Assembly: GCA_043800555.1 (NCBI GenBank)
Contig: JAZDMX010000002.1
Coordinates: 668 to 64,667 of the forward strand
From: Candidatus Omnitrophota bacterium
GTDB lineage: Bacteria; Omnitrophota; Gorgyraeia; Gygaellales; Profunditerraquicolaceae
Direction of reading: 5' to 3'
DNA length: 64,000 nt
Below, one piece after another: positions 15,001 through 47,490 of this stretch (positions within the stretch are counted from its first letter, which is position 1; the number at the start of each line of letters is the position of its first letter). Below the pieces are notes generated by a model. It was given only the letters and a program-made list of their open reading frames with translations. It searched no databases and had not been told where the DNA came from. A program made the position numbers and the translations under genes.

Positions 15001-18000
15001 ATCTGATTCTTAATCTCTTTCCATTCACTTAACTGCTGCGGGGTCGGATCTTTATGCCAGATGTCGTTGGTAAGGGCGCCGGTCATGGTCCAGCCGTAAT
15101 TCAACCCTTCGGCCCCGGGCACGATAGACAAGCCATAATCAGAGCTTCCCAACGGCCTTATATACCACTTGGCTAAACGGGCAAAGGAAGAATCGCTGTC
15201 GCTAGAGCGTAAAATATCCGGGGTAATCCCGAGAGCTTTATAAGTCCTGGCGCTAAAACCTGCGGCCCCCAAAGTAGCCACTCCCAATATATCCCTTAAA
15301 GTGCTCGAGCTGAATACCCCGTCTAAGGCGTTTATCAACGGAGACGCCGGAGCCTGTAACCCGGCATTAACAAAACTGCTGCCAATGGCTACCCCGGGCT
15401 GAACGCTTTGGGTAATATTATCGAAAAACAGTTTGTTTTCTTTAATTTCAATCTCGCGGTTAGACTTTAACTCGCCGTTATCCTGGTATAAATTTTCCTT
15501 CCAGCTCGTATATCCGGAACCATTCGCCCAGTAATTACCGGTTATTACCGAAAGGGCTTTTGCGGGGCCGTTCTTATCTATTACGGTTTGAATCTGATTA
15601 GTTTGGTTAAATACGAGGTTGCCCCATTTGTCCTCGATGCTTAAATTATCAAACCTGGTCGCGGATAATTTATCGGTGTTTGAATACAATGTCAGCCTGC
15701 CGGACTGTAATACCGAATCGGCGTCGCGATAAGTGGTCATAAAGCTTAGCGGCAGGCCAAATACTTCCCGGAAGCTGGAAACTACCCCGATAATGCCCTC
15801 TGTGTTCCTTATGGCTCCGGATTGGTATATGTCGTGGGCCAACTGGCTCCATCCGGCGATAAAGCTGCTCTGCTGGCTTGATTTGGCATTATACAAAGAG
15901 AAGGTCCCGTTGCCGTTACTGACCCAGATATTGCCCGCCGCATCCATATACTTTAACCCGGAACGCACATTATTGCTCATAAAGATTTTGGCGTCACTGG
16001 AATCGCTGATCAGAATAAGGGTGGTTATCGTGCCGTCTTTTAAGGCCAAGCTCACTGTTGAACCGTTTCCTGTGGTTATGCCGTAGAATGAAGTTGAGGA
16101 CATCTGCTGCCGGAGCAATTCCTGCGTCTGCGGGGCGAATGTCGAGGTTAAGCTGCGCATATAGGATATTTCTCCCAACGCAGACTGTTCGCGCCCGCTA
16201 TATCCGAAACTAAGGGCATTTAATGAATCTCTGTATAAGGCATCGGTTACGCTGCTTAAGAAGCCCGTCTCAGGGATAAATGCCGACGGGGCCTTTGTTG
16301 AATTCAACGACTGGATATCCGTAGTCAAGGGCGAAAGCAAGCTCTCGGCCAAGCCCCTGATTGCGGCAGTTCCGGCGTCTGTCAGGTATGCTGCCATAAC
16401 CGCGGTCATATTCGGATTGTTCTTGAGTATTTCGGATTCTACTTTAGCCGCGCCTATAGCCAGAAAACCGGACAGCAGGCCCCGACTAATGCTCTGGTAT
16501 ACAGGCGTCTTGTCAAAATAAGAGCCGGCAACGCCTCCTATCCCTGAAGATATTGCCGAAACATACGGTAAATTATCCAAATCTTTGGAATTAAGCCCGA
16601 TTAGCCCGGGGTTACGGGTAATTATTTCTGCCGCGCCGCTGCCGATTAAACCGGAAATCAGCCTGCCTTTAGTTAAATCCCATGTTGCGCTGCCATAACT
16701 TAATATTCCGGCTTCTGTCAGATTAGGGTTATTTAAATTAGTTGCGTATATTTTACCGGCTGCCGTATCCACATACTGGCCGTTATAATTATAGAGTGCC
16801 CCGTTAACCGCGGTATTAACAGCCAGGCCCGCGGTATTGCCAAGATACATAGCAAGCACATTACTGTTAACTCCGAGGTCTGAAGCCAGCCGCGTAGCGT
16901 AGGTTCCGGCTGCATTCGTTAATGCCCCGCTAATACCGCGTTGCACCCAATGATCCTGGAGCCCGTTTGTTAATTTGCCCAACCCGCCAACCATTCCCAG
17001 TAAAGCTCCGCTGGCAAAAGAAGCGTATAGCTCCGCTTCCCTCTGGTTGACTCCAGTCAGGGTTAATGCGCCTGAAGACAAATAAGCTATTTGGCCGTTA
17101 GCCATACCTTGGAAGACGTTGCCAACGTTAGAGAAAAATCCCGGCGTCTTAACGCTTAACTGGGCGACAGGCGCTGTTGCAGGAGAAGTTAAACTGCTTG
17201 CAGTATACTGGTTCCAGGCATTTACCGCTAACCCTGCGGCTGTTCCGCCTGCGGCGTAAAAATACCAATTATCCCCAAACCAGTCCCCGGTTTTTAATCT
17301 ATTTACTGCCACTCCTGCCGCAGCTCCGGTCAAAGCATATCTTACATATGAGTTCATTCCCGCGTATGTCTGGCTGCTAAACCAACCCTTAACCGGGCTG
17401 GAAACATATTTGCTATATTCTTTAATCTTCTGCGCGTATGAAAAGATTATCGAAGTAGGGTCATTCCAGGAGCTCGCTACATAATTTGCGCCAAGCCCGG
17501 CAAGCGCTCCTCCGGCAGCATACAAATACCAGGAGTCCCCAAACCATTTTCCGGTAGTCAGGCTGTTAACGACGATTCCGGTAACAACTCCGGTTAAGGC
17601 GTATCTGGCATAAGAAGGCATCCCGGCGTATGTCCCGGTGCTAAACCAGCTTGAAGCTACGCTGGAAAATCCCGCCATCGCTAAAGACACCCCTACGCTT
17701 ATTGCCAAATCTTTCACAAAAGCAGCCTCGGCTTTATTGCGTAAAGAAGAAACTTCGCTCTTTAAACTATTCAGGGTTTTTTCTCTGATATACTGTATCT
17801 CGGCTGCGGAAGCATGCTTATTCCAGACAGACGGGGTGGTCGCCCCCAGGATCTTCTTGCTCTCTGAAACAGGTAATGCCTGTAAGCCATCCGGCAGAAA
17901 GCTGACCAGGCAATAACCGCTGAAACCGTTTAAGAATTTATCTTTCGGCAGGAACTCTTCCCTGTGATTGTCGCTAAAGTAAACCTTGTCTCCGGTTACG

Positions 18001-18701: not shown

Positions 18702-19105
18702 TTTATATTTATATTTCTATATACACAAAATGCAATATAAAAGTTTCCCCTTACCCCATCACTCTTCTTAGATTGAATGAGAAAATTCTTCATATTGGTT
18801 TTATAAAGCGTTTATTAAATACTTTACTAAGCCGCTAAAAATAAATCCGAGCTGTCAAATATATCGTCGGTATTTCGGCAGCTCGGCTATCCTTTGATAA
18901 TCCCGATGTTTTAACTTCTCTTAGGACCCGTAGCTTTGCGTCCTCAAATTGCTCTGAGTTTGCCATTTCGTTAGTTGTTGTTGGTTGTTCCAATCACAAC
19001 CAGAGTATAACACACAGCTCGTCGCTGTCAAGAAGAAATTCCACTTTTTTTGGTAGCGCTTTCCCGGTCAAAAACCCCCTGTTTTTACTGCACTTTTAAA
19101 TGCAA

Positions 19106-20654: not shown

Positions 20655-21515
20655 TTAGAAACCCGGGACCATCTTGCCCTGGGTAAACTGCAGGAATATG
20701 GGCCCGCCGATGATGATGCCGATTACCGGCATTATAAAAAAGATAAGCGGGAGCAGTATCTTAATCGGCGCCTGTAACGCTATTCTTTCCCCCCGGTGAA
20801 ACCTTTGGGCGCGGGCGTCGTCGGAAAGTATCGTAAAAACTTCGGCAACAGGCGAACCCATCCTCTCCGCCTGGATAATAGTCTGCGCGAAAGAGCTCAT
20901 TTCAGGGATATCCAGCCTGCTTGACATATCTTTTAAAGCCTGGATGCGGGACTTACCCCATTTTATCTCTTCCAGGACAAGGCTGAATTCTTCGTTGATG
21001 GGGGTAGGCGGGGTTTTATCAATCACCCATTTTATGGCGCTGGAGAAATCCAGCCCGGCTTCGATACAAAGGCCCAATAAATCCACTGTTTCCGGAAGCC
21101 GGCGGACGATTTGATATTTGCGCTTGGAAATTTTTTGTTTCAAATAGAAATCCGGAGCTATATAACCGATCGCCATAGCAACTAAAATATACAGGGGCTC
21201 AACCTTGCCCAAGGCAGCCGGAGTAATCAAGGCTAAGCCCGCCATAGCCAGTATTTTCAAGTTAAAGAACCCTTCGGGGCTGATATTCAAATGGCTGGCT
21301 TCGGTTAATTTCTTCAGTTTAGGGTATAGCTTTATCTGCTCCAGAAACGCCCGGGTAGGCAGGATGCGCGACAATACGGCTACAGGGCTAGCGCGCTTGG
21401 CAGGCGGATTCAACCTGGGCAGGCGCCGGATCCGATTGCCCTGCTGGCTGATAACCAGGCTCCAAACAATTAGCCCCGCGGAAAGAATCAGAAAAAGATA
21501 GATAAGTATGCCCAT
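20655..21515 (-). CDS. tadC: Tad pilus inner-membrane platform protein, TadC-like (T2SS F-domain)
   Basis: 286 aa; multiple TM segments; T2SSF-like core (…VDLLGLCIEAGLDFSSAI…). Second of two adjacent paralogs in operon order, so the B/C assignment is by position only. Confidence 0.7.
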   Translation of the reverse strand: MGILIYLFLILSAGLIVWSLVISQQGNRIRRLPRLNPPAKRASPVAVLSRILPTRAFLEQIKLYPKLKKLTEASHLNISPEGFFNLKILAMAGLALITPAALGKVEPLYILVAMAIGYIAPDFYLKQKISKRKYQIVRRLPETVDLLGLCIEAGLDFSSAIKWVIDKTPPTPINEEFSLVLEEIKWGKSRIQALKDMSSRLDIPEMSSFAQTIIQAERMGSPVAEVFTILSDDARAQRFHRGERIALQAPIKILLPLIFFIMPVIGIIIGGPIFLQFTQGKMVPGF

Positions 21516-21516
21516 A

Positions 21517-22363
21517 TTAAATAGTTATTGCGCTGAATTTACGGATTAAAAACATCCCGATAACCTGCAATAATACCGCTAAAACCAAAAGCATCCTGCC
21601 TATGTCGCTGCCAAGCATTATATCAAAATGATGCCTGTTCACCGAAACCACCCAAAGCACAAACAAAATCGGCAAAAATGACATAATCGCCCCCTGCATC
21701 CTCCCTTGAAGAGTCAGGGTTTTAACGCTCTCTTTAAGCTTGCGGTTATCCCTGATAGTGGTGGTCAGGCGGCTAAAAACTTTTGTCAGCTCGCCACCTG
21801 TTTCCCGTGACACTAACAGAGCGTTAACAACCAGGCTCAACTCCTCGATATTCATCCTTTGGTTCAACCTTACGAGGCTATCCTCAAAAGGTATGCCCAT
21901 TTTGTTCTCTTTAAGCAGCAGGCTCAACTCCTGGCTCATCGGAGGCGGCATCTCCTCCACTAAAACCTCAAACCCCTGCAACAGGCTTAAGCCGCCCTTT
22001 AAACAACTGGAAAGCATGCTGATGGCGTCTAGGAGCTGGGCATTAAATTTTTGTTTATTCCGGGCCAGGCGCATTTTAAGGATAAAATTAGGTATGACCA
22101 AGCCTACTGCCCCGGCGATTATCGCGGGGATTAAAGATTGGGAAAGAAAATAACCCGTTATGCTAAAAACTACCGGCAGGATGAAATAAAGCCGGGCAAT
22201 TGCCTGCGGGCTTTTATCATAAAACACCTGGTCCATCTGTTTTATGACCTTAGCTTCTTTTGCCGCATGCCAGGATTCTACCCGCTTCAAAAATACCGGG
22301 AAAATGCTTATGGCGATTAAAACCACCGAACCCATTATCAACAAACTGAATAATATTATCATG
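21517..22363 (-). CDS. tadB: Tad pilus inner-membrane platform protein, TadB-like (T2SS F-domain)
   Basis: The ORF track extends to 22497, but a real start at MIILFSLLIMG (ATG 22361-22363) avoids overlap with the flp gene. T2SSF-like core (…LLDAISMLSSCLKGGLSLLQGFEVL…). Confidence 0.7.
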
Positions 22364-22381: not shown

Positions 22382-22564
22382 TTACGGTGAAACAGGGGTA
22401 TATTGCTCTCCTGAACCAATAGCATCCCCTGCCTGCTTAAGCCTCTCCTGCAAACCCCTTTTGTAATAAGCGCCCATAGCGATAAATACGGCGGCAAGCA
22501 AAGTTACCACCGCTATATATTCTATAACAGTTTGGGCTTTATTGGTTATTTTTTTTGTTGCCAT
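22382..22564 (-). CDS. flp: Flp-family pilin (60 aa)
   Basis: MATKKITNKAQTVIEYIAVVTLLAAVFIAMGAYYKRGLQERL: Flp motif G/A-x-x-x-x-EY followed by a hydrophobic segment and the conserved YxKRGxQ also seen in the tandem pilin array. Confidence 0.8.
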   Translation of the reverse strand: MATKKITNKAQTVIEYIAVVTLLAAVFIAMGAYYKRGLQERLKQAGDAIGSGEQYTPVSP

Positions 22565-23363
22565 TATAGGTAACCAAAATAGTGGTCTTACTGGAAAATT
22601 GATCCAACGCTTGCCCTTCCAAAGCCAACTTCTTGACCATGGCCTCGCTCATCCCGAATACGCCCTGGTATAGCCTTATTATGCAAATTTCTCCGTTTGT
22701 TTTGCGGAATGTCAAGCTGGCCTTGCTGGATGCAACCTTGATTTCTTCGCCGGCTATCTTTTTTGCCAGGGCCTTGCGGCATTCAGGGCAATCGGCAGTA
22801 TTTGCCGTTACCGGATCCTCGCCGGACAAACTCCAGCCATAGTTAAGCATGGCGGACTTGAAAAAGAAAATCACATCATCAATACTCTTAGTTGTCTCGT
22901 AAGCAGCCGAAGCCCCTGTCGGCCGATCCAAAAGGAAATCCTGTTTAGCCCCGGGGTAAACCGGCATAAAACCCAATTTATCCGGCGTCTCCTTACCGGA
23001 AGCCAGTATATCCTCTTTGGTAGGTATTTTAGTAGTGGTAACGCTAAAGCGCGTTTTGTTATCCCGGCGGCGTATCCGCGGGTTAACCGCGACAATAACC
23101 ATATACCCGTCTTTTAAATATACCCCGCTAGACTGTTCAGCCCAGCCTTCACGAAGCAATTTTTTCTTATACATCGCAATGATATCGTTTCCGGAAAGAG
23201 CTGTCATATAAACCTGGATACGGGTCCGAGTCAAACCCGCGTCTACGTCCTTATCCATGGTCTTAACAGCGTCGGAAGGCAAGGGAAGGACTAATTCTTC
23301 GGCTTGCAGCAAATTAAAATACCCGCATATAAAAAATAAAAGCGCGCAGATAATTATCCTCAT
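22539..23363 (-). CDS. Hypothetical secreted protein (signal peptide MRIIICALLFFICGYFNLLQA) within the Tad locus
   Basis: ORF 22539..23384; start trimmed to the Met that begins a signal peptide; contains CPEC. No recognisable family. Confidence 0.5.
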   Translation of the reverse strand: MRIIICALLFFICGYFNLLQAEELVLPLPSDAVKTMDKDVDAGLTRTRIQVYMTALSGNDIIAMYKKKLLREGWAEQSSGVYLKDGYMVIVAVNPRIRRRDNKTRFSVTTTKIPTKEDILASGKETPDKLGFMPVYPGAKQDFLLDRPTGASAAYETTKSIDDVIFFFKSAMLNYGWSLSGEDPVTANTADCPECRKALAKKIAGEEIKVASSKASLTFRKTNGEICIIRLYQGVFGMSEAMVKKLALEGQALDQFSSKTTILVTYNGNKKNNQ

Positions 23364-23405
23364 CTCATCTCCTTTTCCAAACAAACGGCTGCTTTTTTGT
23401 TTTCC

Positions 23406-24962
23406 CTATCGTGTCCCCGTTATCCTGGAGTCATAGGTATATTCGAAATTCCCCACGTCTCCGCCGTCAAAGCTGGCCTCGCTGCTGCTGGTTATCTCCG
23501 GATAACTCGTAGCTATAATCCCGGAGCTGGCCCCGGGGTGCTTCTGGGTTGTCGTACATATAGTATGCCAATACGGGAATATTACGTCGGCTATCCTGAC
23601 AATCATCATGTCGCTAACGGCCTGGCAAGGAACACAGGAGGCAAGTTCTCCGCTTATGTCGTTACGGCAAGGCTTGCAATCCAGGCAATTATATACGGAC
23701 TCACTGCCATCAGGCCCCCAATCATCATATACTTCACGATTATTCTCTTGCACCAGCACTATCGAATTTATCCCTCCGGCTGATACAATAGCCGACAGAA
23801 TCGCGGCAATAGAACTGGAAATTAACATTTCCGTTGTTCTCATGGCTACGATTGCCGCGCATAACGCGACAGCGGCGATACATACCAGGCAGTCGTAAGA
23901 CTTGCAATTCTCGCATATGGTGGTCAGGACCGCTGTAACAGCGCTCAAGGCAAAAATTATCGTAAGCGTCGCGCCTTGCGCCCCCAATGTAGTAGCTGCG
24001 CTGCTTAAGGCTTGGGAAATGCCTGGCGCTGCGCCGATATTATAATCCAGTAAACTGCCAATCTCTGAATAGCTGCCTACGGTATGCTGGACTTCATAAG
24101 AAGTTATTTTTGGCAAGTCTAAAGTAGCGCTAACCGTATGCTCCTGGCTGGGCCGGGGATTAAGAGGCTCACTGGAAGGTTTGTCCTGCCAACTGTAAAC
24201 CCCCTCCTTGGCCGGCCGGGAGAGTATCCAGTCGTCAGTCCCGCCGCTATCAGTGGTAAACGACGACATCCAAAGGCTAAACGCGTCATTCTGCTCATTA
24301 GAAAGCTTGGAAGGTATGCAGCTATTTGAAAAGGCGTAAGTAAAGCCGGCGTTATACGAGCTTTCATAAGCGCTATCCATAGATACTACGCTCTCGCAAA
24401 AAGCTTCCCATTGAGCGTCGTGGAATGAATCTGTTATTGACCGCATTGTCTTAGCGTTCTGTAGGTAAGCTTCGACTTCAACATAAGCCTCTTCAAGCGT
24501 GATAGAGGCAGCCAAAGCTAAACCCACGGCAACTAAAAAAGAGGCCCAGACAACCTCGCAAGACTCGCTGGAACTCGAAGTAGCTAAAAGAGTGGCCAGC
24601 GCGGTTGCCGATAGGCTACCGGCTACCGCAAGCGTTACTGCGGTGCTTAAATGCTGGTCTGATTCCTGATAAGTAGTCTCGAATTCACCGTCATAGGTAA
24701 TATCAAAATTATCCTCCAGGTTTGCGTTCGCCTGCGCGAGGTTATTTAAGCCTGTGGCATAAACCGAAGCTGCCGCAAGCGCTCCGGCGTCAGCGGCATT
24801 GGCAGAGCAGGTTTTGTCCAAAGAAACCCTGCCGATATTAATTGTGGCGATCGCGGCAATCAACAGGATAACCAGCACCACCAGCAAAAGAGGGGTGATT
24901 TGGCCGGCTAAATTATCCTTTTTGCCAAACTGCTTGTTCTGGCTGAACCAGGAAAAAAACAC
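23406..24962 (-). CDS. TadG-like pilus-associated protein (N-terminal pseudopilin-like hydrophobic segment, Cys-rich C-terminus)
   Basis: 518 aa; N-term …LAGQITPLLLVVLVILLIAAIATINIGRVS…; C-terminal region has many Cys (CENCKSYDCLVC…CLDCKPCRND…CVPCQ). Position next to TadE/F-like genes. Confidence 0.55.
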   Translation of the reverse strand: MFFSWFSQNKQFGKKDNLAGQITPLLLVVLVILLIAAIATINIGRVSLDKTCSANAADAGALAAASVYATGLNNLAQANANLEDNFDITYDGEFETTYQESDQHLSTAVTLAVAGSLSATALATLLATSSSSESCEVVWASFLVAVGLALAASITLEEAYVEVEAYLQNAKTMRSITDSFHDAQWEAFCESVVSMDSAYESSYNAGFTYAFSNSCIPSKLSNEQNDAFSLWMSSFTTDSGGTDDWILSRPAKEGVYSWQDKPSSEPLNPRPSQEHTVSATLDLPKITSYEVQHTVGSYSEIGSLLDYNIGAAPGISQALSSAATTLGAQGATLTIIFALSAVTAVLTTICENCKSYDCLVCIAAVALCAAIVAMRTTEMLISSSIAAILSAIVSAGGINSIVLVQENNREVYDDWGPDGSESVYNCLDCKPCRNDISGELASCVPCQAVSDMMIVRIADVIFPYWHTICTTTQKHPGASSGIIATSYPEITSSSEASFDGGDVGNFEYTYDSRITGTR

Positions 24963-24972
24963 GTCCGCTCCC

Positions 24973-25266
24973 TTATTTCAATAAATAGACTTCGTTTTCC
25001 TGCATCTCCTCGGCCTCGTATGTAGCCGGGGGTTCTTGCCCGGAAGAAATTTGGCCTGCTGCCTGGCGGGTATCGTTATAGCTTATCTGGCGCTTAATGA
25101 TGTTATCGCTGGACCACTTCCACAAGCTAATCAAGCCCGCCAGTAAAGCAGTCGTGGCAACAAAAATAAGCGTGAACTCCAGGGTTACCTGGCCCAGGGA
25201 GGCCACCAACCAAGGTTTCTTATTGTAAGGGGCGCTTTTCAATAACGCCTGATGCGGCCCTGTCAT
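24973..25266 (-). CDS. TadE-like pseudopilin
   Basis: 97 aa; …LGQVTLEFTLIFVATTALLAGLISL… (TadE-type N-terminal motif). Confidence 0.6.
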   Translation of the reverse strand: MTGPHQALLKSAPYNKKPWLVASLGQVTLEFTLIFVATTALLAGLISLWKWSSDNIIKRQISYNDTRQAAGQISSGQEPPATYEAEEMQENEVYLLK

Positions 25267-25922
25267 TGCATACTCCGGGATCTCTGCAAGCTTGTCTGAT
25301 CGGGGTAATATTTGCCGTCCGAACCCAAATATTGGTTAAACTGCTGGTAAACAACCTGGTTCGTTGCGTTGTCAAAACCAAGAGCGACATTCGCCTGTAA
25401 AGTATCCGCGGCATTAAGGGTTTTCGTCGTAAGGATGTTCCCGGAACCTTCGTTTTTCACAAGGACCCGGTTTGCGTCTATGGTATCCTGGAAACTGCTT
25501 GCATTAGTTTCTACTTCGCCTTCGGCTGGCTGATTTGCATCTTCACGCTGGGTTACGTCAATGGCGCCGGCTTCATTAAGCTGGTATTTATTTACCCCTT
25601 TTTTCTCCACATAATAGCCGTACTTATCCAGCTCCTCGCCTGTGGACCATAAGACATTAGAGCTGCTGCTAAAAGACTGCATTTGCCCTAGTTCCATCGG
25701 ATTGGATATGTTGGGCATACGCCGGAAAACAACCCTGGTATAGCTGGCCGAATCATTGGCTTGCCTGGCTGTTTTCAGCGCCGCCCTGAAGGTTTGCATA
25801 ATGTAAGACTGTTGACGGTTAAGTTTTTCGCTATAATTGATCAGGAAGGAAAATGCCACAATAATCAACATCCCCAAAATAGCAAATTCCGTGGCTGCTT
25901 GCGCCCTTGTGCCGGTTGACAT
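25263..25922 (-). CDS. TadE/TadF-like pseudopilin
   Basis: 219 aa; MSTGTRAQAATEFAILGMLIIVAFSFLINY… (TadE-like N-terminus). Confidence 0.6.
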   Translation of the reverse strand: MSTGTRAQAATEFAILGMLIIVAFSFLINYSEKLNRQQSYIMQTFRAALKTARQANDSASYTRVVFRRMPNISNPMELGQMQSFSSSSNVLWSTGEELDKYGYYVEKKGVNKYQLNEAGAIDVTQREDANQPAEGEVETNASSFQDTIDANRVLVKNEGSGNILTTKTLNAADTLQANVALGFDNATNQVVYQQFNQYLGSDGKYYPDQTSLQRSRSMQ

Positions 25923-25937
25923 CGCTTAATCACCCCA

Positions 25938-26282
25938 CTAATTAGCGGCGCCGGAATCTTCTGCCCTTGAACTGTAATGAGTAACCGCGCTCTCGTTAGC
26001 CTGTGATGTTTTCTCCCCGCCGCTTGTTTCCGTTAAGGTTGTTGCCGAACTGGCGACATAATCCGAGCTGGATTCGTTAATCTCCAGGCCCGAAGTATCC
26101 TGCTGGTAAGCCTTATGTTCCCGGCCTATCCAGTTGTCGGCCATATCCTTGATTTTTCCGCTTATCCCGCGTTTGAAATAAATCTCCATCCCAATCAACG
26201 CCAAGCTCACCACTCCGAGAAGAAGCACGATTTCGGTTAGATTCTGCCCTTTTCTTAATAGCTCCCGCTTCATCCGCTCCAT
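25938..26282 (-). CDS. Pilin-like protein (Flp-related N-terminus lacking EY, Ser/Thr-rich tail)
   Basis: MERMKRELLRKGQNLTEIVLLLGVVSLALIGMEIYFKRGISGKIKD…, then an S/T-rich C-terminus. Confidence 0.55.
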   Translation of the reverse strand: MERMKRELLRKGQNLTEIVLLLGVVSLALIGMEIYFKRGISGKIKDMADNWIGREHKAYQQDTSGLEINESSSDYVASSATTLTETSGGEKTSQANESAVTHYSSRAEDSGAAN

Positions 26283-26839
26283 CCATCATTTGAAGTAACG
26301 CCTAAGCTTTCGCTTGCCTGCCGGTCAAGCTGTTGGGCTCCGGTTTCAGTATTAGAGCTGCTAGAAGTTGTCCTATCGGTTGTTTTCTCTTCTAACTGCC
26401 ATTCCCTTATGGCGATATTCAATTCTTTCTGCTTCTCGTTAAGAAGGTCCTTTTGGATGCCTAAGGCGGTATTAAGCCCCTCCCATACAGAGCTGTGTTC
26501 CACAGAATTATGCATCTTGACTGCTAAAACGTTAATTTCATCCTGCAAAGCTTTTGTTTGCGCCTTAAGCGCGAGTATAGCGCTGGAATAACGATGGGAA
26601 TTGCCGTAAGTTATCGTGCTTACGGAGCTTGAATTTATTTCCGATTCCAAGCCTTTATTTTCCCTGCTGGAGGCGCTGGTATTTCCCGGAGAATAGCCTC
26701 CTGCGCCAAGCTGATCAGCCTGGCTGCGCAAGTTTCCCTGGAACCCGCGTTTAATATAAACCGTCATGGCAATAATAGCAGCCGCCACTATTGCCAGCAA
26801 ATATACGTATTCTAGCGTGCTTTGGCCCTTACGCAACAC
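26270..26839 (-). CDS. flp: Flp-family pilin with long C-terminal extension (189 aa)
   Basis: MLRKGQSTLEYVYLLAIVAAAIIAMTVYIKRGFQGNL…, then a coiled-coil and an S/T-rich tail. Confidence 0.75.
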   Translation of the reverse strand: MLRKGQSTLEYVYLLAIVAAAIIAMTVYIKRGFQGNLRSQADQLGAGGYSPGNTSASSRENKGLESEINSSSVSTITYGNSHRYSSAILALKAQTKALQDEINVLAVKMHNSVEHSSVWEGLNTALGIQKDLLNEKQKELNIAIREWQLEEKTTDRTTSSSSNTETGAQQLDRQASESLGVTSNDGWSG

Positions 26840-26846
26840 CGGTTAA

Positions 26847-27161
26847 CTAACTGCCCCAGTATTCTTTGCTTTGTTCGGCTACGGCTTCGTTGCCGGTTTT
26901 TTGCTGTTGATTCTGGTTAATAGTAGTTGTTGTAACCCCGGCGTCAACGTTCTCCGACTGCCCTATATTGGTCGTAGTGGTATAGCTTGAAGTAGTATAC
27001 CCCGGAGAATACTGCTGGCCGACCTGATCCGTAGATTCTTTCAACCTCCCTTGGACTCCGCGCTTCATATACACGCCCATAGCGATAAGGGCTGCTACTA
27101 CGAACGAAATCAAGATAACGTATTCTAACGTGCTTTGTCCCCGTGACTTACGCTTAAGCAT
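26847..27161 (-). CDS. flp: Flp-family pilin with Thr-rich tail (104 aa)
   Basis: MLKRKSRGQSTLEYVILISFVVAALIAMGVYMKRGVQGRL…TTSSYTTTTN…TTTT. Strong SD (AAGGAGGTG) upstream. Confidence 0.8.
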   Translation of the reverse strand: MLKRKSRGQSTLEYVILISFVVAALIAMGVYMKRGVQGRLKESTDQVGQQYSPGYTTSSYTTTTNIGQSENVDAGVTTTTINQNQQQKTGNEAVAEQSKEYWGS

Positions 27162-27187
27162 CTCTTCACCTCCTTAAAAAATACGCC

Positions 27188-27526
27188 CTAAGGATTACTC
27201 TGGTTAACCGCAGCCTTAACCGTTTGAGTCCCTGTCCTGGATGCGGCAGTATTAACGGTCCTGGCAACCCCTCCGCCTGTAGCTGTATCTTCTGTATCAG
27301 TAGCGGATTGGGTAGAGCTCATGGCTGACTGCGTGTAATATGGCTCATACTGCGCGGTTGTGCCGGTAACATTATCTCCGGAATCCTTATAATCCACCGC
27401 GTCCTTGATTTTTCCCTGCAGCCCGCGTTTAACATAGACTTGCATAGCCACTACCGCGGCAACAACCAAACCTATAACTATGGCGTATTCCGCGGTGCTC
27501 TGGCCCTTTCTTGTCAGCTTAAACAT
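27188..27526 (-). CDS. flp: Flp-family pilin with Thr/Ala-rich tail (112 aa)
   Basis: MFKLTRKGQSTAEYAIVIGLVVAAVVAMQVYVKRGLQGKI…; SD AGGAGGT upstream. Confidence 0.8.
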   Translation of the reverse strand: MFKLTRKGQSTAEYAIVIGLVVAAVVAMQVYVKRGLQGKIKDAVDYKDSGDNVTGTTAQYEPYYTQSAMSSTQSATDTEDTATGGGVARTVNTAASRTGTQTVKAAVNQSNP

Positions 27527-27571
27527 ATCTTACCTCCTTTTATTGTCCGCCCGGGCAAACCCGGTTTCATC

Positions 27572-27760
27572 TTACGGCGTAGTTGTGCCGCCGAAACTAA
27601 CCGACTCTATCTTATCATGCATCTTGGTAGTAAGAGTATCGTAAGAACTCTGTAGTTTTGGTTTAAGAAGCGTGCTGGCGACATAAATTATCGCCCCGAC
27701 CACCGCAGCCAAAATAATAACGTACTCCAGCGTGCTTTGAGCCCTGCTAAACTTTTTCAT
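27572..27760 (-). CDS. flp: Flp-family pilin (62 aa)
   Basis: MKKFSRAQSTLEYVIILAAVVGAIIYVASTLLKPKL…; SD GGGAGGTG upstream. Confidence 0.8.
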   Translation of the reverse strand: MKKFSRAQSTLEYVIILAAVVGAIIYVASTLLKPKLQSSYDTLTTKMHDKIESVSFGGTTTP

Positions 27761-27779
27761 CTTTTCACCTCCCTATTGA

Positions 27780-27941
27780 TTATTCCTTCCGGTAATAATT
27801 CAATTCGTCCTGCGCCTGTATAAGGCGGGCGTTCATCGAACGCATTATATACGTAGTCATCGCCATCAACGCGGCAGCGACGATAATTATCAACATGGTA
27901 TACTCCACGACACTCTGGGCTTTTTGTTTGGCTGTTTTCAT
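27780..27941 (-). CDS. flp: Flp-family pilin (53 aa). Not in the ORF track (under 60 aa).
   Basis: Manual translation: MKTAKQKAQSVVEYTMLIIIVAAALMAMTTYIMRSMNARLIQAQDELNYYRKE*. The track's 27757..27978 ORF is in another frame and judged spurious. Confidence 0.6.
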   Translation of the reverse strand: MKTAKQKAQSVVEYTMLIIIVAAALMAMTTYIMRSMNARLIQAQDELNYYRKE

Positions 27942-28081
27942 TCCATTCTTGCCTTGGCATTGGCAACGTAATCCTCAAAGATCTTTGGGATCTTCTCCAT
28001 AAAAATCACGGAGAGGCTCACGATAATCGCAAAAATAACCACATACTCTATTACGCTCTGGCCCTTCTTCGCTAAAATCAT
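27938..28081 (-). CDS. flp: Flp-family pilin (47 aa). Not in the ORF track (under 60 aa).
   Basis: Manual translation: MILAKKGQSVIEYVVIFAIIVSLSVIFMEKIPKIFEDYVANAKARME*; 4-nt ATGA overlap with the next pilin gene. Confidence 0.55.
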   Translation of the reverse strand: MILAKKGQSVIEYVVIFAIIVSLSVIFMEKIPKIFEDYVANAKARME

Positions 28082-28122
28082 CGCTTAAAATATAACACTT
28101 TGCCGCGCGCTAGTCAAGCTTA

Positions 28123-30276
28123 TTAAGGCCTGGCGAGAAAGCGCTTTCCATCCAAAACCGCCTCTCTTTCATTTATCCTTTGGCAGAAATAGGCCAGGTC
28201 ATTGCCAAAGGCGTAACCTTCTGCGGGCAAGACAAACTCGGCTACGTAATTTTCCCCGCCCTTATCTAACCGCGCGCCTAAATCATAAAAACGCTCCTGG
28301 GTAACCGCAAAATCTTTGTCCTCATAGCCTGCCGGCAGGAAATGCCAACGGCTGTAAGCGTCTAAAACCGCCAGATAATTCTCAAACAGGGACTTGACGC
28401 TTGAATCCCGGGTCAATCCCGAATTAATATTTTCGGCGTTAAAAAACCTCCGGGAATCAGCGGTATAGGTGAAAAGCTCTATTTTCCGGCTGTAATCCTG
28501 AAAGGCCTCGTCGAGATTCGGCCAATGGCTAAGGTACAAACAAGCTATTTCTTCGGCCCTTTTGGCCCCGGGCTCCAGGTTGCTCAAGATAACCAAACGG
28601 GTTTTTCCGGTAATGGCTGTCTTTAAAGCGCAGCCTCTTAAGATTACCTGCTTAGCGTTCCCGGAATTACGCAATTCCATCTCTATATCCGCGATAAAAA
28701 AATCCTTGCCCTGGCCTTCCAAGCGATAGGGCCGGAAATCTCCTATGCTCCTGACCTTGCGGCATTCGATAAACTGCCAGGGCCATACGCCAAAAATAAA
28801 AAGGTGTTTGCCGGCCTGGGATACAGGCAAAGTTTCCAACTCCTCGAGTTTGTTCCCGTGGATAGTCAGGCTGTTTACGCTATTTTCCTTTGCCTCAAGC
28901 CCGGCAAGAAGATTAAAAAATTCCTGCGAAGGCGAATCATAACCCGGGGCGTTAAAAAGGATAAGCGGGGCAGCCGTATTAAAAGATTTATTTATCCTCT
29001 TCTTTAAATCATGTAGCGGAGAGGAAAAATCATAAGGCATATACGGGCTTGACCAAACTGAATAGAATTGGCCGTCCAGGTAAAGAGTTGAACCGTCGGA
29101 TAAACTAACCTTTAGGCAACGGGCCTCGCGCAGAGCAAAATCCATAATGCGCCAGATACCCAGGCCGATTACCTTGATGTTTTCTATAGCGTCCAAACAG
29201 CCGTTTAGCTTATCTTCTAAAGATTTTTCTATTTTTCCCCGCAGTAAAGGCAGGTAAATAATACTCTCCGTTATGCCTTCAAAATCCCACCCGCTTTCTG
29301 GAAGCCGGTTTTTAATTTCCGCGGCAATTAATTTGCTTACGCCGAGAACGGAATCTACCGCCCTAAGCAATATGATGCCGGTATTTTCCAGTTGTAAAGG
29401 CCTATCGAATGTAAATATACTGGCCTCCTTGCCGGCCGGCTCTTTTGCCTCGCCTCCCATAGCTTGCCTGCCGGATTCTTCTTTGTCCCCGGCGCCGGCA
29501 TCTTCCTTGCGGGTAAGCTCTTCTTCTTGGGCTTTCCTGGCTGCTTCTGCCCGGGCCTTCTGCAATTCTTCCTCCCGGCGCTTAGCCTCTTCTTCTATCT
29601 GAAGCGCTTTTAACCTTTCGGCTTCGGCTTTGATTTTTTGTTCTGCCTCTTCCCGGGCCGCTCTTATTTCTTCCTGACGGCGTTCTTCTTCAAGAACGCG
29701 CTCTCTTTCCCGAACGATTTCTTCTTCCTGCCTGCGGATAGCTTTTTCCTCTGCTTCTTTCACCGGCCCACTGCCATCGATGGGCAAGGGGAGCAAAGTA
29801 ATCTGGCTAACGGGAATTTCCTGCCCGCCGGCAGGCAGGCTGCTTTGGGACTTATCATCCTCGAAATGTTTGGGGTTTTCCGAAGGCTGGGCTGTTACGG
29901 ATTTTGCCTCTGCTTTTTGGGATGATGCGTCTTCCAATAAAACAGGAAGCTTGGGCATAACAATGCGCTGCTTCTTCTGTTTGGGGGCCCTTCCAACAGG
30001 AGCGCTCAAACCAACCTCTTTTATAATCCTGTTTATGGCGGACTTAGACAAGGCTATTTTATAGTGATCCAGGGCTAAGGCGGTTAATTTACGGCAGCTT
30101 AAGGCAGGATTGGATTTCTTTTGCTCTATTATAAAATCCCTTATTTCCGGTTTTAGCTTATGCACTACACCCATATATCTCCTGACAATAGAAATTTTCT
30201 TATCGAAAATATCCCCTTGCAGCGGGCGTTGAAATGCCTGCCCTGCTGTAACTCGCTCCAGATTGGACATTTTCAA
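28123..30276 (-). CDS. HTH-domain protein with a long Glu/Arg/Lys-rich coiled-coil and an about 400-aa C-terminal domain of unknown function (possibly transposase-derived regulator)
   Basis: 717 aa; N-terminal …IIEQKKSNPALSCRKLTALALDHYKIALSKSAINRIIKEVGL (HTH-like). Charged heptad region EEKAIRRQEEEIVRERERVLEEERRQEEIRAAREEAEQKIKAEAERLKALQIEE…; no family recognised for the C-terminus. Confidence 0.5.
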   Translation of the reverse strand: MKMSNLERVTAGQAFQRPLQGDIFDKKISIVRRYMGVVHKLKPEIRDFIIEQKKSNPALSCRKLTALALDHYKIALSKSAINRIIKEVGLSAPVGRAPKQKKQRIVMPKLPVLLEDASSQKAEAKSVTAQPSENPKHFEDDKSQSSLPAGGQEIPVSQITLLPLPIDGSGPVKEAEEKAIRRQEEEIVRERERVLEEERRQEEIRAAREEAEQKIKAEAERLKALQIEEEAKRREEELQKARAEAARKAQEEELTRKEDAGAGDKEESGRQAMGGEAKEPAGKEASIFTFDRPLQLENTGIILLRAVDSVLGVSKLIAAEIKNRLPESGWDFEGITESIIYLPLLRGKIEKSLEDKLNGCLDAIENIKVIGLGIWRIMDFALREARCLKVSLSDGSTLYLDGQFYSVWSSPYMPYDFSSPLHDLKKRINKSFNTAAPLILFNAPGYDSPSQEFFNLLAGLEAKENSVNSLTIHGNKLEELETLPVSQAGKHLFIFGVWPWQFIECRKVRSIGDFRPYRLEGQGKDFFIADIEMELRNSGNAKQVILRGCALKTAITGKTRLVILSNLEPGAKRAEEIACLYLSHWPNLDEAFQDYSRKIELFTYTADSRRFFNAENINSGLTRDSSVKSLFENYLAVLDAYSRWHFLPAGYEDKDFAVTQERFYDLGARLDKGGENYVAEFVLPAEGYAFGNDLAYFCQRINEREAVLDGKRFLARP

Positions 30277-30434: not shown

Positions 30435-30797
30435 TCACTCTAAGGTAATGTGATCGCCCACGGCTGTAAAGCTATCTTTGATTGCCCCGGAAGGAAGTTC
30501 AATGACATAATTGGCTTGGAAATATATCCTGGTGAATTTAAACGGCTTAATACCGGAAAGGGTTTGAATGACCTTATTATCCCTGCCCATAAATAAGGCA
30601 TCAATGGAAAATCGCATAAAGAACGTGTGGATGGAATTACAGGGTTTAATTATAAGGGCTTGGCTTTTATTAAAACTTTTCTTTCCTAACAGGCCTTTGA
30701 TCCTCTTAAGCGGGGAACCGGCAATAAAAACGTCGCCGGCTACAACTGTATTCCGGGTTTTATTAATCAGGCGCATAGAGTTAATAGGAAGATACAA
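30435..30797 (-). CDS. DUF192 (COG1430) family protein
   Basis: 120 aa; …IIKPCNSIHTFFMRFSIDALFMGRDNKVIQ… matches the conserved core of DUF192. Confidence 0.6.
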   Translation of the reverse strand: MYLPINSMRLINKTRNTVVAGDVFIAGSPLKRIKGLLGKKSFNKSQALIIKPCNSIHTFFMRFSIDALFMGRDNKVIQTLSGIKPFKFTRIYFQANYVIELPSGAIKDSFTAVGDHITLE

Positions 30798-30818: not shown

Positions 30819-32981
30819 CTATTTATTGGGCTTACTGGGTTTGAATATTTCTTCCGAGACCACGATGCCGCGCACCCGGATCTCGTCGAGAAAAGAAGGC
30901 TTGTATCCGGTGGCGGTAAAATACCCGTGCACCTTGCCCTGGGCGTCCACCCCGGTCTGCTTAAAGACGAATATATCGTTAAGAATAATGTGCAACTCGT
31001 CTTTCATCCCGGTAATTTCAGATACAGCCATGATTTTACGCGAGCCGTCGGATAACCGGGCCGTATGGACTATTATGTCGACGGCAGAGGCGATCATTTC
31101 GCGTATGGCCCTGACCGGGAGCTCTACTCCCGACATAAGGATCATGGAATCCAGCCGGGACAAAACATCATAGGTGGAATTGGCGTGAATGGTGGTCATC
31201 GAACCGTCGTGGCCGGTATTCATTGCCTGAAGCATATCCAGAGACTCTGTCCCGCGGCATTCGCCGACGATAATCCTGTCCGGGCGCATGCGCAGGGTAT
31301 TGCGGAAAAGGTCTTTTATGGCAACCGCGCCCTTGCCCTCGATGTTCGGCGGACGGCTCTCCAATCTTACCCAATGCTCCTGGTTTAGTTTTAATTCGGC
31401 GGCATCCTCTAAGGTTATGATCCTCTCGTTATTGGGGATATGCTCGGAGAGGGCGTTAAGCACGGTGGTTTTGCCGGAGCCGGTGCCGCCGGAAACAATC
31501 ATGTTCTTACGGCATAGAACGCAAGTCATGATAAAATCCGCCATTTCCTGCGTAAGCGCGCCCAAAGCAATCAGGTCTTTCGTCTTATACCTCTCCTTGC
31601 GGAATTTCCTGATTGTTAACGTCGGGCCTGTTAAGGCAAGCGGCGGGATAATCGCGTTTACGCGCGAGCCATCGGCAAGGCGGGCGTCAACCATAGGCAC
31701 AGATTCATCGATACGCCTTCCGATAGGGGCGATTATGCGTTCGATGATCGTGCGGACCTGCTCGTTAGAGATGAATTTCTTGCTGGTTGGCTCGATCCTG
31801 CCGTGTTTTTCGACAAAGATTTCATCTTTGTTATTAACCATAATATCGGTGATATCCGTATCGGCCAAAAGGTCCTCTAAGGGCCCCAGCCCCAGGGCTT
31901 CATCAAGTATTTCTTTAACAAGCTTTTTCCTGTCGTCCTGGGAAGGGATAAAACTTCCCGCTTCTTCCAGCAAAAGATTAGCTACGGTAATTTCCGCCCT
32001 GTCTCTTAATTCTTTGGTTTTCTTGTAGTCGCTGAAGACATTCAGGTTCATTAACTTGATATTCATGCCGTCGAGAAGGCGGCTATGTATTTTCCTCTTA
32101 AGGGCCAAAACTTCATCCCTGTCTTCTGAACTCGGCTCAACCACCGTATCAGTCAGGCCCTGCTCTTGCCAAAATTGCCCCGGTTTTTCCAACCCGCTAG
32201 ACTTTAAAGCAATTTCATCGAGGTTCTTCCTGTCTACGAATAAATTTTTGTTCGCGCAAAGCGCGCGGGCCAATCCTATAATCGACTGCGCTACCCGCGA
32301 ATGCGGCGCATCGATAACAACCGGCACTCCCCGGTTCACCGCCTGGTTTACTACTCTTCCGTCGGAAGGGATCCTCTCAATTATTTCCAAAGGGATGTTA
32401 TTGCGGATCTCCTGCCAGCTTATGCTCGAGGAGGACTCTGCCCGGTTAAGCACAAGCCTTATCATGTTCAAAGGAAAATGCAGCACCTGCAGGGTATCCA
32501 GCATCCATTTAGTCTGATACACCGAAAGCACGTCCGGAGTAACCATCAAAAGCATTAAATTCGCCTGATTTAAAGCGGAGAGGAAAACGTTGTTAAAGCT
32601 CTCTCCCGCGTCGGAGATTATATAATCGTAATCTTTATCCAGAAAAGAAAAGACTTCCTGGATCATTTCCGGGTGCAGGTGCGCCGCCTGTTGCGGCCTC
32701 AAAATACCCGTCAGGAAATCCACGCTATAAAGGTTGGTCTTAACGACAAAATCCTCTTTTTTGGTCTTTTGCGGCTGTTTTTGCAGGAAGCCCATAAGGT
32801 CGGCTATTGATTTCTGCGGGCTGAGGTTAAGCATATGCGCCATGTCTCCGACCACATGGGTATCCAGGTCAATAAGGCAAACCCGGTTGCCTTCGGCGGC
32901 AAGAGCCACCGCCAGGCTGGAAGTAATCAGCGTCTTGCCTGTCCCGCCTTTAGTGCTGAATATTACTATTCTTTTGGCCAT
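30819..32981 (-). CDS. cpaF: Fusion of a CpaE/TadZ-like ParA/MinD ATPase domain (N-terminal) with the CpaF/TadA secretion ATPase (C-terminal)
   Basis: 720 aa; N-term MAKRIVIFSTKGGTGKTLITSSLAVALAAEGNRVCLIDLD (deviant Walker A of ParA/MinD). C-term …MIVSGGTGSGKTTVLNALS…RIITLEDAAEL…GHDGSMTTIHANS… (VirB11/CpaF family). Confidence 0.8.
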   Translation of the reverse strand: MAKRIVIFSTKGGTGKTLITSSLAVALAAEGNRVCLIDLDTHVVGDMAHMLNLSPQKSIADLMGFLQKQPQKTKKEDFVVKTNLYSVDFLTGILRPQQAAHLHPEMIQEVFSFLDKDYDYIISDAGESFNNVFLSALNQANLMLLMVTPDVLSVYQTKWMLDTLQVLHFPLNMIRLVLNRAESSSSISWQEIRNNIPLEIIERIPSDGRVVNQAVNRGVPVVIDAPHSRVAQSIIGLARALCANKNLFVDRKNLDEIALKSSGLEKPGQFWQEQGLTDTVVEPSSEDRDEVLALKRKIHSRLLDGMNIKLMNLNVFSDYKKTKELRDRAEITVANLLLEEAGSFIPSQDDRKKLVKEILDEALGLGPLEDLLADTDITDIMVNNKDEIFVEKHGRIEPTSKKFISNEQVRTIIERIIAPIGRRIDESVPMVDARLADGSRVNAIIPPLALTGPTLTIRKFRKERYKTKDLIALGALTQEMADFIMTCVLCRKNMIVSGGTGSGKTTVLNALSEHIPNNERIITLEDAAELKLNQEHWVRLESRPPNIEGKGAVAIKDLFRNTLRMRPDRIIVGECRGTESLDMLQAMNTGHDGSMTTIHANSTYDVLSRLDSMILMSGVELPVRAIREMIASAVDIIVHTARLSDGSRKIMAVSEITGMKDELHIILNDIFVFKQTGVDAQGKVHGYFTATGYKPSFLDEIRVRGIVVSEEIFKPSKPNK

Positions 32982-36523: not shown

Positions 36524-36769
36524 CTACTCTTTCTTGATTTCTTTTATGATCAGGCTCAATAATTCGGCGATCTTGGCGATAAGAAAAAGAAAAAAGAAAA
36601 AAAAGGTATAAACTACCAGCACAACGGCCCCCGTCCAGCGGGAATTCCCGGGCGAGGCTCCAAAAATAATCGAAACCCCTCCTACGACCCCAAAAAAAAG
36701 AAAAATCCAGGCAGCGATTTTTACCACCGTGCTGGATGTTTTTAGGAAACTCAGGTGTTCGCGCATCAA
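36524..36769 (-). CDS. Small hypothetical membrane protein (81 aa, two TM segments)
   Basis: Hydrophobic ORF; no family recognised. Confidence 0.35.
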   Translation of the reverse strand: MMREHLSFLKTSSTVVKIAAWIFLFFGVVGGVSIIFGASPGNSRWTGAVVLVVYTFFFFFLFLIAKIAELLSLIIKEIKKE

Positions 36770-37055: not shown

Positions 37056-37156
37056 GTTTTCGATTCCTGGAAAATACTTTTATAACGGAAATTTGGGATT
37101 CAGTTGCAAAAGCGAACATATTGTAATATAAAGAAGGAACCGGGTCAATAATTATG

Positions 37157-37185
37157 TTGACCCGGGTTCTCAAAGCGCTTATAAT
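37157..37185 (+). promoter_or_regulatory. Sigma-70-like promoter for the FIST/HK/RR operon: TTGACC, 17-nt spacer, TATAAT
   Basis: TTGACC at 37157-37162, 17-nt spacer, TATAAT at 37180-37185, ATG at 37193. The -35 is embedded in an inverted repeat GAACCGGGTCAA…TTGACCCGGGTTC (37137-37170). Confidence 0.55.
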
Positions 37186-37192
37186 ACAAAAC

Positions 37193-38383: not shown

Positions 38384-38396
38384 CCCCTGTTCAGAA

Positions 38397-39872: not shown

Positions 39873-39906
39873 TCAACCTGGGGGCTTTTAACGGATACTA
39901 TTAACT

Positions 39907-43949: not shown

Positions 43950-43968
43950 TTTTACGCGCCGTTAAACT

Positions 43969-46365: not shown

Positions 46366-46430
46366 TTGTTTTTCTTCCTTATGCTAATATTTGTTCGCCT
46401 GAGCCTCAAGATCGGCTGAAAAATTGCGCC

Positions 46431-46841: not shown

Positions 46842-46843
46842 AC

Positions 46844-47473: not shown

Positions 47474-47490
47474 AATATAAACCTAACATA

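Follow-up and report, generated by a model that had tools for sequence, protein, structure and literature searches.

A conserved, ordered set of prepilin-like genes in a Tad-like locus beside giant genes of the Omnitrophota

The Flp pilins of tight adherence (Tad, or type IVc) systems are short, at 50-80 residues, and fully helical, and the 97-residue pilin KilP is predicted to be all-helical too (PMC12075869); the Tad pilins of Caulobacter likewise lack a beta domain (PMC11067988). KilP is the major pilin of the Kil Tad system of Myxococcus xanthus, in which KilK and KilO serve as adapter Flp pilins and KilL, KilM and KilN are the TadE/F/G tips (PMC12075869). An archaeal system resembling Epd has been proposed as the ancestor of Tad systems (PMC6668835). 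Here we analyze a group of small pilin-like genes in a stretch of 64,000 nucleotides, referred to below as the window, from a Candidatus Omnitrophota metagenome-assembled genome (MAG) contig (JAZDMX010000002.1, locus tags V1869_000xx). In our assessment this region encodes the filament subunits of a Tad-like machine that is conserved beside giant genes across the Omnitrophota, a reading to which we assign a probability of about 0.6.

The Omnitrophota are abundant, uncultured and probably predatory or parasitic nanobacteria, and a Tad-like locus beside giant genes is the leading candidate for attachment to and attack on other cells. Tad complexes in the phylum were described by Seymour et al. 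2023 (PMC10066038), and that paper, citing Kizina et al. 2022, reports expression of Tad proteins in V. archaeovorus. West-Roberts et al. 2023 (bioRxiv 10.1101/2023.11.21.568195) described a conserved secretion locus that contains small genes with a class III signal and lies upstream of giant genes. In a 2026 preprint 13 of 14 giants have pilus or secretion flanks, and a 2025 limonene-enrichment paper makes no mention of pili. The present locus is that of West-Roberts et al., where the existence of the small genes was already noted. The pilin families, their fixed order, the pairing of a 112-residue pilin (p112) with a 104-residue one (p104), the YxKRGxQG motif and the predicted fold are not described in the West-Roberts or Seymour papers, and neither are the missing peptidase and the riboswitch discussed below; the words "riboswitch" and "c-di-GMP" are absent from the West-Roberts text.

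Pilin-like genes and their distribution in the Omnitrophota

The window contains eight small pilin genes and two TadE-like genes, e219 and e97, all on the minus strand and all with a class III (prepilin) signal. Seven of the small genes stand in tandem (25938-28081) as open reading frames (ORFs) of 47, 53, 62, 112, 104, 189 and 114 residues, and a separate pilin ORF of 60 residues lies at 22382-22564, in agreement with the original prediction. That prediction also counted a pilin-like variant, which is most likely the 219-residue ORF at 25263-25922 (RAQAATEF), and it missed a tenth class-III-like ORF, e97, of 97 residues. Each pilin begins with a short basic leader followed by (G/A)-Q-(S/T/N)-x-x-E-(Y/I) and about 20 hydrophobic residues, so that the G/XXXXEY prepilin motif and the hydrophobic helix expected of such proteins are both present, cleavage itself being predicted. 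A six-frame scan of the 64 kb for [KRNS][GAS]Q[STNA]xxE[YFIL] returned nine matches, all of them on the minus strand and confined to 22.5-28.1 kb, and each starting an ORF that continues into a hydrophobic stretch; the ninth match is e219. This clustering is far from chance. In the pilin alignment Gln +1 and Glu +5 are invariant, Thr +3 is found in p62, p112 and p104, and the residue at -1 is Gly in five pilins and Ala in three (p53, p62 and p60). The Flp signature that had been ascribed to every member thus holds in full for the Glu at +5 (8/8) and nearly so for the Tyr at +6 (7/8), with p114 (QNLTEI) as the exception.

In the order of transcription, the first pilin gene is p47 (27938-28081; KKGQSVIEY), which matches the Flp1_like model (23.4 bits) and Class_IIIsignal, both below threshold, and has an orthologue in the related contig L001. 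The start of p53 (27780-27941; QKAQSVVEY, Ala at -1) overlaps the p47 stop (ATGA), and p62 (27572-27760; SRAQSTLEY) is a pilin of classical size; the two are found in 48 and 44 of 57 complete loci, respectively. The next two genes represent distinct types, namely the QYEPYY-type pilin p112 (27188-27526; YVKRGLQG) and the DQxGxQY-type pilin p104 (26847-27161; YMKRGVQG), the latter with a class III signal and a conserved Thr-rich tail. Eight nucleotides past the p104 stop, a GTG codon starts p189 (26270-26839; YIKRGFQG), which has a helical or coiled-coil-looking insert and a Ser/Thr-rich end, and this is followed by the divergent pilin p114 (25938-26282; KGQNLTEI, YFKRGISG; NCBI start at 26273, giving 111 residues). 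The TadE/F-position minor pilin e219 (25263-25922), so placed by its position beside the TadG-like gene, has no Pfam or NCBIfam match, and a second one, e97 (24973-25266; LGQVTLEF), matches Class_IIIsignal with E=0.09. The separate short pilin p60 (22382-22564; NKAQTVIEY, YYKRGLQE) lies just upstream of tadB. The Y-x-K-R-G-x-Q-G block, described earlier as common to all nine, occurs in five, being exact in p112, p104 and p189, degenerate in p114 and p60, and absent from the 47-, 53-, 62- and 219-residue ORFs. Similarly, the AGGAGGT Shine-Dalgarno sequence said to precede several genes is confined to p112 and p104; p62 has GGGAGGT, and the rest have weak sites or none.

Comparison with L001, which contains orthologues of both the 47- and the 53-residue ORF, confirms that these two are real genes, as had been claimed. 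Of the 53 residues of p53, 48 are identical in L001, with 11 synonymous and five non-synonymous codon changes; the corresponding changes are 21 and 10 in p62 and 10 and 13 in p47. Synonymous changes outnumber non-synonymous ones in p53, p62, p112 and p104, and do not in p47, p60, p189 and p114. The heads of the proteins (first 50 residues) are 86-90% identical to their L001 counterparts in p53, p62, p112, p104 and p189 and 68-76% identical in p47, p60 and p114, and the long tails are 63-75% identical. These identities and codon changes show that the pilin genes are real and that purifying selection acts on them. The four shortest pilin ORFs (47, 53, 60 and 62 residues) might otherwise be taken for chance ORFs, or for membrane micropeptides unrelated to pili, given that they fall below the usual gene-calling cut-offs, that several are uncalled in related contigs, and that none reaches the threshold of a hidden Markov model (HMM). 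All of them, however, bear at their N-terminus a signal motif that the 64 kb contain only in this locus, and their orthologues are kept in sequence and position, as the p53 figures illustrate. Conservation effectively refutes the chance-ORF explanation, which we regard as highly improbable; all eight small ORFs, and both ORFs at the TadE position, are genuine genes that are conserved and encode a prepilin signal.

Homologues of these pilins are numerous. A profile built from the five YxKRG-bearing N-termini retrieved 1,224 proteins, mostly of 100-112 residues and mostly from Omnitrophota, none with a Pfam domain. A search with p112 gave 588 full-length homologues at E<=1e-5, and an exhaustive HMMER search with the p104 family gave 4,311 cluster representatives at E<=1e-3 and, at the stricter E<=1e-10, 1,524; most of the matches are full-length. 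The QYEPYY type (p112) and the p104 type define two large families absent from Pfam and NCBIfam, with tails conserved over their full length. Together they represent at least 1,500 clusters at 50% identity that are invisible to both databases and, as short members of the set are also often uncalled, Tad pilins are being under-annotated phylum-wide.

A scan of GTDB species genomes yielded 110 stretches, of which 80 were kept; the counts per locus come from 57 complete loci. Nearly all of the 80 are labelled Omnitrophota. The few odd labels (L012, L017, L019, L020, L060, L061, L080 and others) name Planctomycetales, Eubacteriales, Pseudomonadota, Dehalococcoidia, Methanosarcinales and Elusimicrobia; mis-binning or loose labelling of MAG contigs is the probable cause, not a real presence outside the phylum. 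About 80 species genomes share the pilin set in the same order. In the close relatives L001-L003 the order is the same gene for gene and is followed by giant genes of 7,682, 15,744 and 27,940 residues, and the p60 orthologue is present in such relatives without having been called as a gene (14845-15027 in L001). The complete loci hold 4-13 pilin-like ORFs each (median 8, n=57). A p112-type gene is directly followed by a p104-type gene in all 57, on an assignment of paralogue classes that in distant loci rests on the best BLAST hit; two or more such pairs occur in 21 of the 57, and the QYEP-type signature in 55.

In at least nine loci (L038, L042, L049, L054, L055, L069, L070, L075 and L081), tadB and tadC directly follow p62-p112-p104 and the other pilins come next. 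This rearranged position divides the set into a core module, p62-p112-p104, and a second module consisting of p53, p189, p114, the TadE/F/G-position genes, u281 and p60. Length varies most between loci at the p189 position (96-433 residues) and the p114 position (70-304 residues). The p60 position carries lineage-specific extensions, with 267 residues and a Glu/Ala-rich, coiled-coil-like tail in L004 (14280-15083, plus strand) and 509 residues in L069. What had been described as an expanded repertoire is not a local expansion and represents instead a fixed set of orthologues shared by about 80 species of the phylum. We rejected recent local expansion and antigenic variation on the ground that every paralogue is matched by an orthologue at the same position in other species.

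Tails, predicted fold and family membership

Four of the ORFs (p112, p104, p189 and p114) are long, at 104-189 residues, and from residue 51 to the end they contain 24-32% Ser plus Thr, which bears out the earlier description of long pilins with Ser/Thr-rich tails. The further suggestion that these tails are variable regions does not hold. Across the phylum the long tails have a mean column identity of 61% with invariant Gln, Glu and Gly positions. The p104 tail follows the consensus QYS(A/P)GxTTSxYTTTT..Q.E....GG.TTT.I..N.Q.KTGSETV, in which Q68, E70, G75, Q86 and E92 are invariant or nearly so, and the p112 tail retains QYEPYY, GG.V.R and RTGTQ. AlphaFold2 monomer models of p104 and p112, built from two independent alignments, one for each protein, predict a helix followed by a hairpin: helix 11-50 and a long two-stranded hairpin 56-73/76-94 in p104 (mean predicted local distance difference test score, pLDDT, 67.9), and helix 11-44 and hairpin 65-81/87-103 in p112 (mean pLDDT 64.7). 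Column entropy in the p104 tail has a period of two, with autocorrelations of -0.44, +0.45 and -0.34 at lags 1, 2 and 3; the signal is absent from the p104 helix region and weaker in p112. This periodicity is a beta-strand signature independent of the models. A Foldseek search of the PDB with the p104 model returned nothing at E<=1e-3, the weak matches being long beta-hairpins of pore-forming toxins. With moderate confidence, then, the two core pilin types are predicted to combine a helix with an unusual long beta-hairpin tail. Conservation, predicted fold and periodicity together indicate that the tails are conserved structural elements.

These data bear on a different view of the set, in which locally expanded, interchangeable major Flp pilins expose Ser/Thr-rich tails that are variable and/or O-glycosylated and provide antigenic or host-range variation. 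Heavily O-glycosylated Ser/Thr-rich pilins are known from archaea, and the Ser and Thr content of the present tails would suit such a role. The tails are also less conserved than the heads of the core pilins (63-75% versus 86-90% identity to L001), the p189 and p114 positions vary widely in length, and p112/p104 pairs are duplicated in over a third of the complete loci (21/57). The one-to-one orthologues in the same order in other species nevertheless mark an old fixed set rather than a recent expansion, and the p104 and p112 tails hold invariant residues and motifs over phylum-level distances, with beta-strand periodicity in p104. In addition, domain searches found no glycosyltransferase in the locus, and Flp_Fap was not recovered for the pilins. 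We consider variable or glycosylated tails on expanded Flp pilins improbable, and continue to favor a fixed set of filament subunits with structural tails.

The expectation that Flp_Fap (PF04964) would recover these ORFs failed, with none of the ten window ORFs matching at E<=1 and eight of 65 p104-family members matching below threshold (best E=0.002). With Class_IIIsignal (PF04021), six of the ten window ORFs gave sub-threshold matches, the best being p62 at 21.8 bits against a gathering cut-off of 23.7, and all 65 p104-family members matched at E<=1 (best 1.9e-4), again below threshold. The p104-family profile found no pilin among PDB sequences, and hhalign against Caulobacter PilA (sequence verified against PDB 8U1K) aligned 18 columns around the cleavage site with 3% probability. 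The set also departs from the short, fully helical Flp definition: the range of 50-80 residues accommodates p53, p62 and p60 (53-62 residues), p47 falls just under it, and four pilins have 104-189 residues. The pattern Q-x-S/T-x-E with Gln at +1, which describes the PF04021 class III signal family, is present. Despite the failure of Flp_Fap, the claim that these are pilins of a Tad (type IVc) type IV filament stands, because the G/XXXXEY motif and hydrophobic helix occur together with Tad machinery genes. The PF04021-like scores fit the proposed descent of Tad from the archaeal Epd-like system.

The Tad-type locus and the proposed filament

The pilin genes are flanked by the two halves of a Tad-type locus, with the ATPase and secretin on one side and the TadB/TadC platform on the other. 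The locus includes CpaB, a secretin, TadZ fused to TadA, the platform proteins TadB and TadC, and a TadG-like protein. Pfam and NCBIfam profile searches of the locus ORFs identified the core components expected of Tad machinery, namely a TadA-type ATPase, TadZ, two T2SSF proteins, CpaB/RcpC, an RcpA-type secretin and TadE/G-like minor pilins. CpaB/RcpC (34614-35537) scores as the TIGR03177 equivalog at 162.6 bits against a cut-off of 71. The RcpA/CpaC-type secretin (32983-34617) combines an N-terminal T2SS-T3SS_pil_N domain (PF13629) with PF00263 and a C-terminal TonB_C, and the 720-residue protein at 30819-32981 fuses ParA/MinD-like TadZ to a TadA/CpaF-type ATPase (TIGR03819, 339 bits, just below the cut-off of 373). 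On the other side of the pilins, the 518-residue TadG-like large minor pilin g518 (23406-24962) matches PF13400 at 34.2 bits against a cut-off of 22.3 and occurs in 41 of 57 loci, and the TadB-like (21517-22362) and TadC-like (20655-21515) platform proteins each have one T2SSF domain (PF00482) by domain search; the likely ATG of the former, at 22362, gives 281 residues, as in relatives. All of these genes are on the minus strand. Both fusions, secretin-TonB_C and TadZ-TadA (about 720 residues), were also observed in related loci.

The locus ends in an OprB porin gene, 3' of which come a strong promoter-like site (19031-19004, minus strand), a c-di-GMP-I-GGC riboswitch aptamer (cyclic di-GMP-sensing; 18873-18973, minus strand; 65 bits, cut-off 59) and a giant ORF of at least 6,238 codons (3-18716, minus strand) that runs off the window start and is orthologous to the giant genes of L001-L003. 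The promoter-like site is near-consensus, and the aptamer that follows it lies in the leader of the giant ORF. Of 14 related loci tested, 11 have the same element in the same place, with tadC or the porin on one side and the giant gene on the other.

Given this setting, the system might alternatively be a pseudopilus like that of a type II secretion system (T2SS), a short periplasmic piston pushing the giant protein or its fragments through the secretin rather than an external adhesive pilus. The giant ORF follows the locus here, and among 31 loci with enough downstream sequence 20 have an open frame of at least 500 residues running off the locus end. Many different pilin-like subunits are typical of T2SS pseudopili, and there is no separate retraction ATPase. 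The recognizable parts are of Tad type, however, with CpaB above its cut-off, TadZ, split TadB and TadC, the pil_N secretin and a TadG-like protein, and Tad systems can also operate with a single ATPase (PMC12019362). Neither N-methylated pilins of the GspG-K type nor GspC, GspL or GspM were found in the Pfam and NCBIfam scans of the locus ORFs, in which the sole match to a T2SS family was XpsH (E=0.034, 13.9 bits against a cut-off of 160). Moreover, its own promoter-like site and riboswitch make the giant gene a separate transcription unit. A T2SS identity is less likely given that the machinery matches Tad, and we regard the piston model as unlikely overall.

Under the favored reading of a Tad-like machine, each prepilin would insert in the inner membrane and be cut after the Gly or Ala preceding Gln +1 by an A24 peptidase encoded elsewhere. 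TadZ-TadA, with TadB and TadC, would polymerize the pilins, and the filament would leave through the secretin. The p62-p112-p104 module is proposed to supply the bulk of the filament, because its genes have strong Shine-Dalgarno sequences, are retained everywhere and move as a unit in rearranged loci. The proteins p112 and p104 probably act as a pair, with N-terminal helices that would form the core and Thr-rich beta-hairpins that would form the outer surface. We read the Y-x-K-R-G-x-Q-G block as most likely a structural hinge or a helix-tail contact, since it sits at the end of the hydrophobic helix, the models lose confidence there, and two of its glycines are invariant. By analogy with Kil, the second module (p53, p189, p114, e219, e97, g518, u281 and p60) may provide low-abundance adapter or tip subunits. 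The filament and the giant surface protein encoded next to it could then act jointly in cell-cell attachment or in predation, regulated by c-di-GMP.

A number of observations weigh against this proposal. The pilins match no Pfam or NCBIfam pilin model at threshold and have no similarity to solved Tad or archaeal pilins detectable by PDB sequence search, hhalign or Foldseek. When strict motifs are used, p112-to-p104 adjacency falls to 29 of 57 loci, and in distant lineages the partner of p112 is p104-like by best hit only. The predicted structures are of moderate confidence because the predicted template modelling score (pTM) is below 0.3 in both (pLDDT 65-68), and they are of monomers only. 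Pilin processing is assumed, as no Peptidase_A24 match (Pfam) was found among window ORFs of at least 120 residues, and a crude regular expression found no multi-transmembrane ORF with GxGD(xK), either in the window or up to 10 kb away from the pilins of 84 related loci. Finally, we infer the identity of the major pilin, the co-polymerization of p112 with p104 and the function of the filament.

With regard to processing, Ala at -1 is tolerated by archaeal-type peptidases and is not known to be tolerated by those of the PilD type, and three of the eight pilins of the window have Ala at this position. A prepilin peptidase need not be encoded beside the system it serves and may be used by more than one system, and MSH loci are likewise without one (PMC6668835). 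The A24 peptidase is presumably encoded elsewhere in the genome.

In L039 (7744-7881, plus strand) and L043 (8373-8518, plus strand), which belong to another Omnitrophota lineage, a canonical c-di-GMP-I riboswitch (37.3 bits against 35) lies between u717 and the first pilin gene, and the pilin operon of this lineage appears to be itself under c-di-GMP control. Divergently upstream of the Tad locus in the window (37154-40842, plus strand) are genes for a FIST sensor, a GAF histidine kinase and a GGDEF response regulator, a plausible local source of c-di-GMP; FIST adjoins the locus in L004 as well. A bolder proposal would be a new kind of filament, a p112/p104 heteropolymer with a helix core, Thr-rich hairpins zipped into a beta-sheet sheath and a minor-pilin cap, coupled to display or delivery of the giant protein, with c-di-GMP riboswitches acting on the giant gene or, depending on the lineage, on the pilin operon. 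We consider that combination doubtful.

The remaining genes of the locus, likewise on the minus strand, are conserved in relatives. An 81-residue protein with two transmembrane segments (36524-36769) is the conserved first gene in relatives' loci, and a SurA-like peptidyl-prolyl isomerase (35537-36448), identified by domain search, is conserved near the locus head, followed by CpaB/RcpC, the secretin and TadZ-TadA. A DUF192 protein (30435-30797; PF02643 in orthologues) separates the gene for the ATPase from u717 in essentially all related loci. The 717-residue u717 (28123-30276), present in nearly all loci, has an HTH-like (helix-turn-helix) N-terminus, a long stretch rich in Glu, Arg, Lys and Ala, and about 430 residues that form its C-terminal region; it has no match in Pfam, NCBIfam or PDB, and it always lies between DUF192 and the pilin genes, in a few loci on the opposite strand. 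After the seven tandem pilins, e219, e97 and g518 comes u281 (22539-23384), a conserved secreted or lipoprotein-like protein with a faint PF27226 (AF_1845) match in orthologues, and then p60, TadB, TadC and the porin.

A promoter-like site, TTGACT-17-TATATT with TG, directly precedes the first pilin gene (28089-28117, minus strand; a consensus match only). The p47 ATG lies eight nucleotides past the end of its -10 box (28081-28117, minus strand) and has no Shine-Dalgarno sequence; as read from this spacing, the p47 mRNA may be leaderless or nearly so. A search for an attenuator or terminator after a candidate major pilin found no enrichment of terminator-like sites (25 found versus 26.2 expected), and a GC hairpin between p62 and p112 (27551-27564) lacks a T-run on the coding strand. 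A few kilobases from the Tad locus, the minus strand at 42828-45390 codes for a GHL10 glycosyl-hydrolase-like protein and for a cell-wall peptidase, SH3b-NlpC/P60, a pair compatible with the cell-wall-degrading, predatory lifestyle proposed for Omnitrophota. Beside a tRNA-Gln gene there is a low-GC stretch (46001-48000; 38.5% versus about 47%) that contains a toxin-antitoxin-like pair of HEPN and nucleotidyltransferase genes (46431-46841 and 46844-47473, both minus strand).

Comparison with Flp, archaeal class III and Kil pilins

Knowing which small genes encode the filament would give proteomics, antibody or cysteine labelling, and cryo-EM something definite to aim at, namely a fixed set with two large families as its core and with a predicted helix and beta-hairpin in place of the all-helical Flp fold. 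A comparison with the Flp pilins, such as Caulobacter crescentus PilA (PDB 8U1K) and Aggregatibacter Flp1, shows a common basic leader, Glu +5, Tyr +6 and hydrophobic helix. Flp pilins are cut after Gly, as is predicted here, and are likewise encoded with TadA, TadB, TadC, CpaB/RcpC, an RcpA-type secretin and TadE/G-like proteins, and several flp paralogues are common in Flp loci, as here. Unlike Flp pilins, those of the Omnitrophota have Gln at +1, allow Ala at -1, possess a conserved YxKRGxQG motif and do not match PF04964. Also unlike the short and fully helical Flp proteins (PMC12075869, PMC11067988), the core types have 100-112 residues and a predicted beta-hairpin tail, and no tadV/cpaA was found in the Omnitrophota locus.

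The best HMM similarity, although below threshold, is to the archaeal class III pilins (PF04021; the EppA-dependent Epd system), and it extends to all 65 of the p104-family members examined. The two groups have in common Q(+1)-x-S/T(+3)-x-E(+5) and Ala or Gly at -1. The Omnitrophota pilins differ in their bacterial diderm setting with a secretin, CpaB and TadZ and in scores that stay below 23.7 bits, and no archaeal counterpart of the tail families was detected. To HMMs these pilins are closer to archaeal class III than to Flp, and they thereby bear on the proposed archaeal origin of Tad pili.

Kil offers a functional comparison only. It is a Tad system of a predatory bacterium, with a main pilin, short Flp-like adapters and a TadE/F/G-type tip set, and the 97 residues of KilP provide a precedent for a major pilin of about 100 residues. 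Unlike the core pilins described here, KilP is predicted to be fully helical, and the Kil genes are scattered over several loci and include a dedicated peptidase, KilA. The Omnitrophota set, in contrast, is gathered in one locus save for the peptidase, and has as its core a pair of pilins with predicted beta-hairpin tails.

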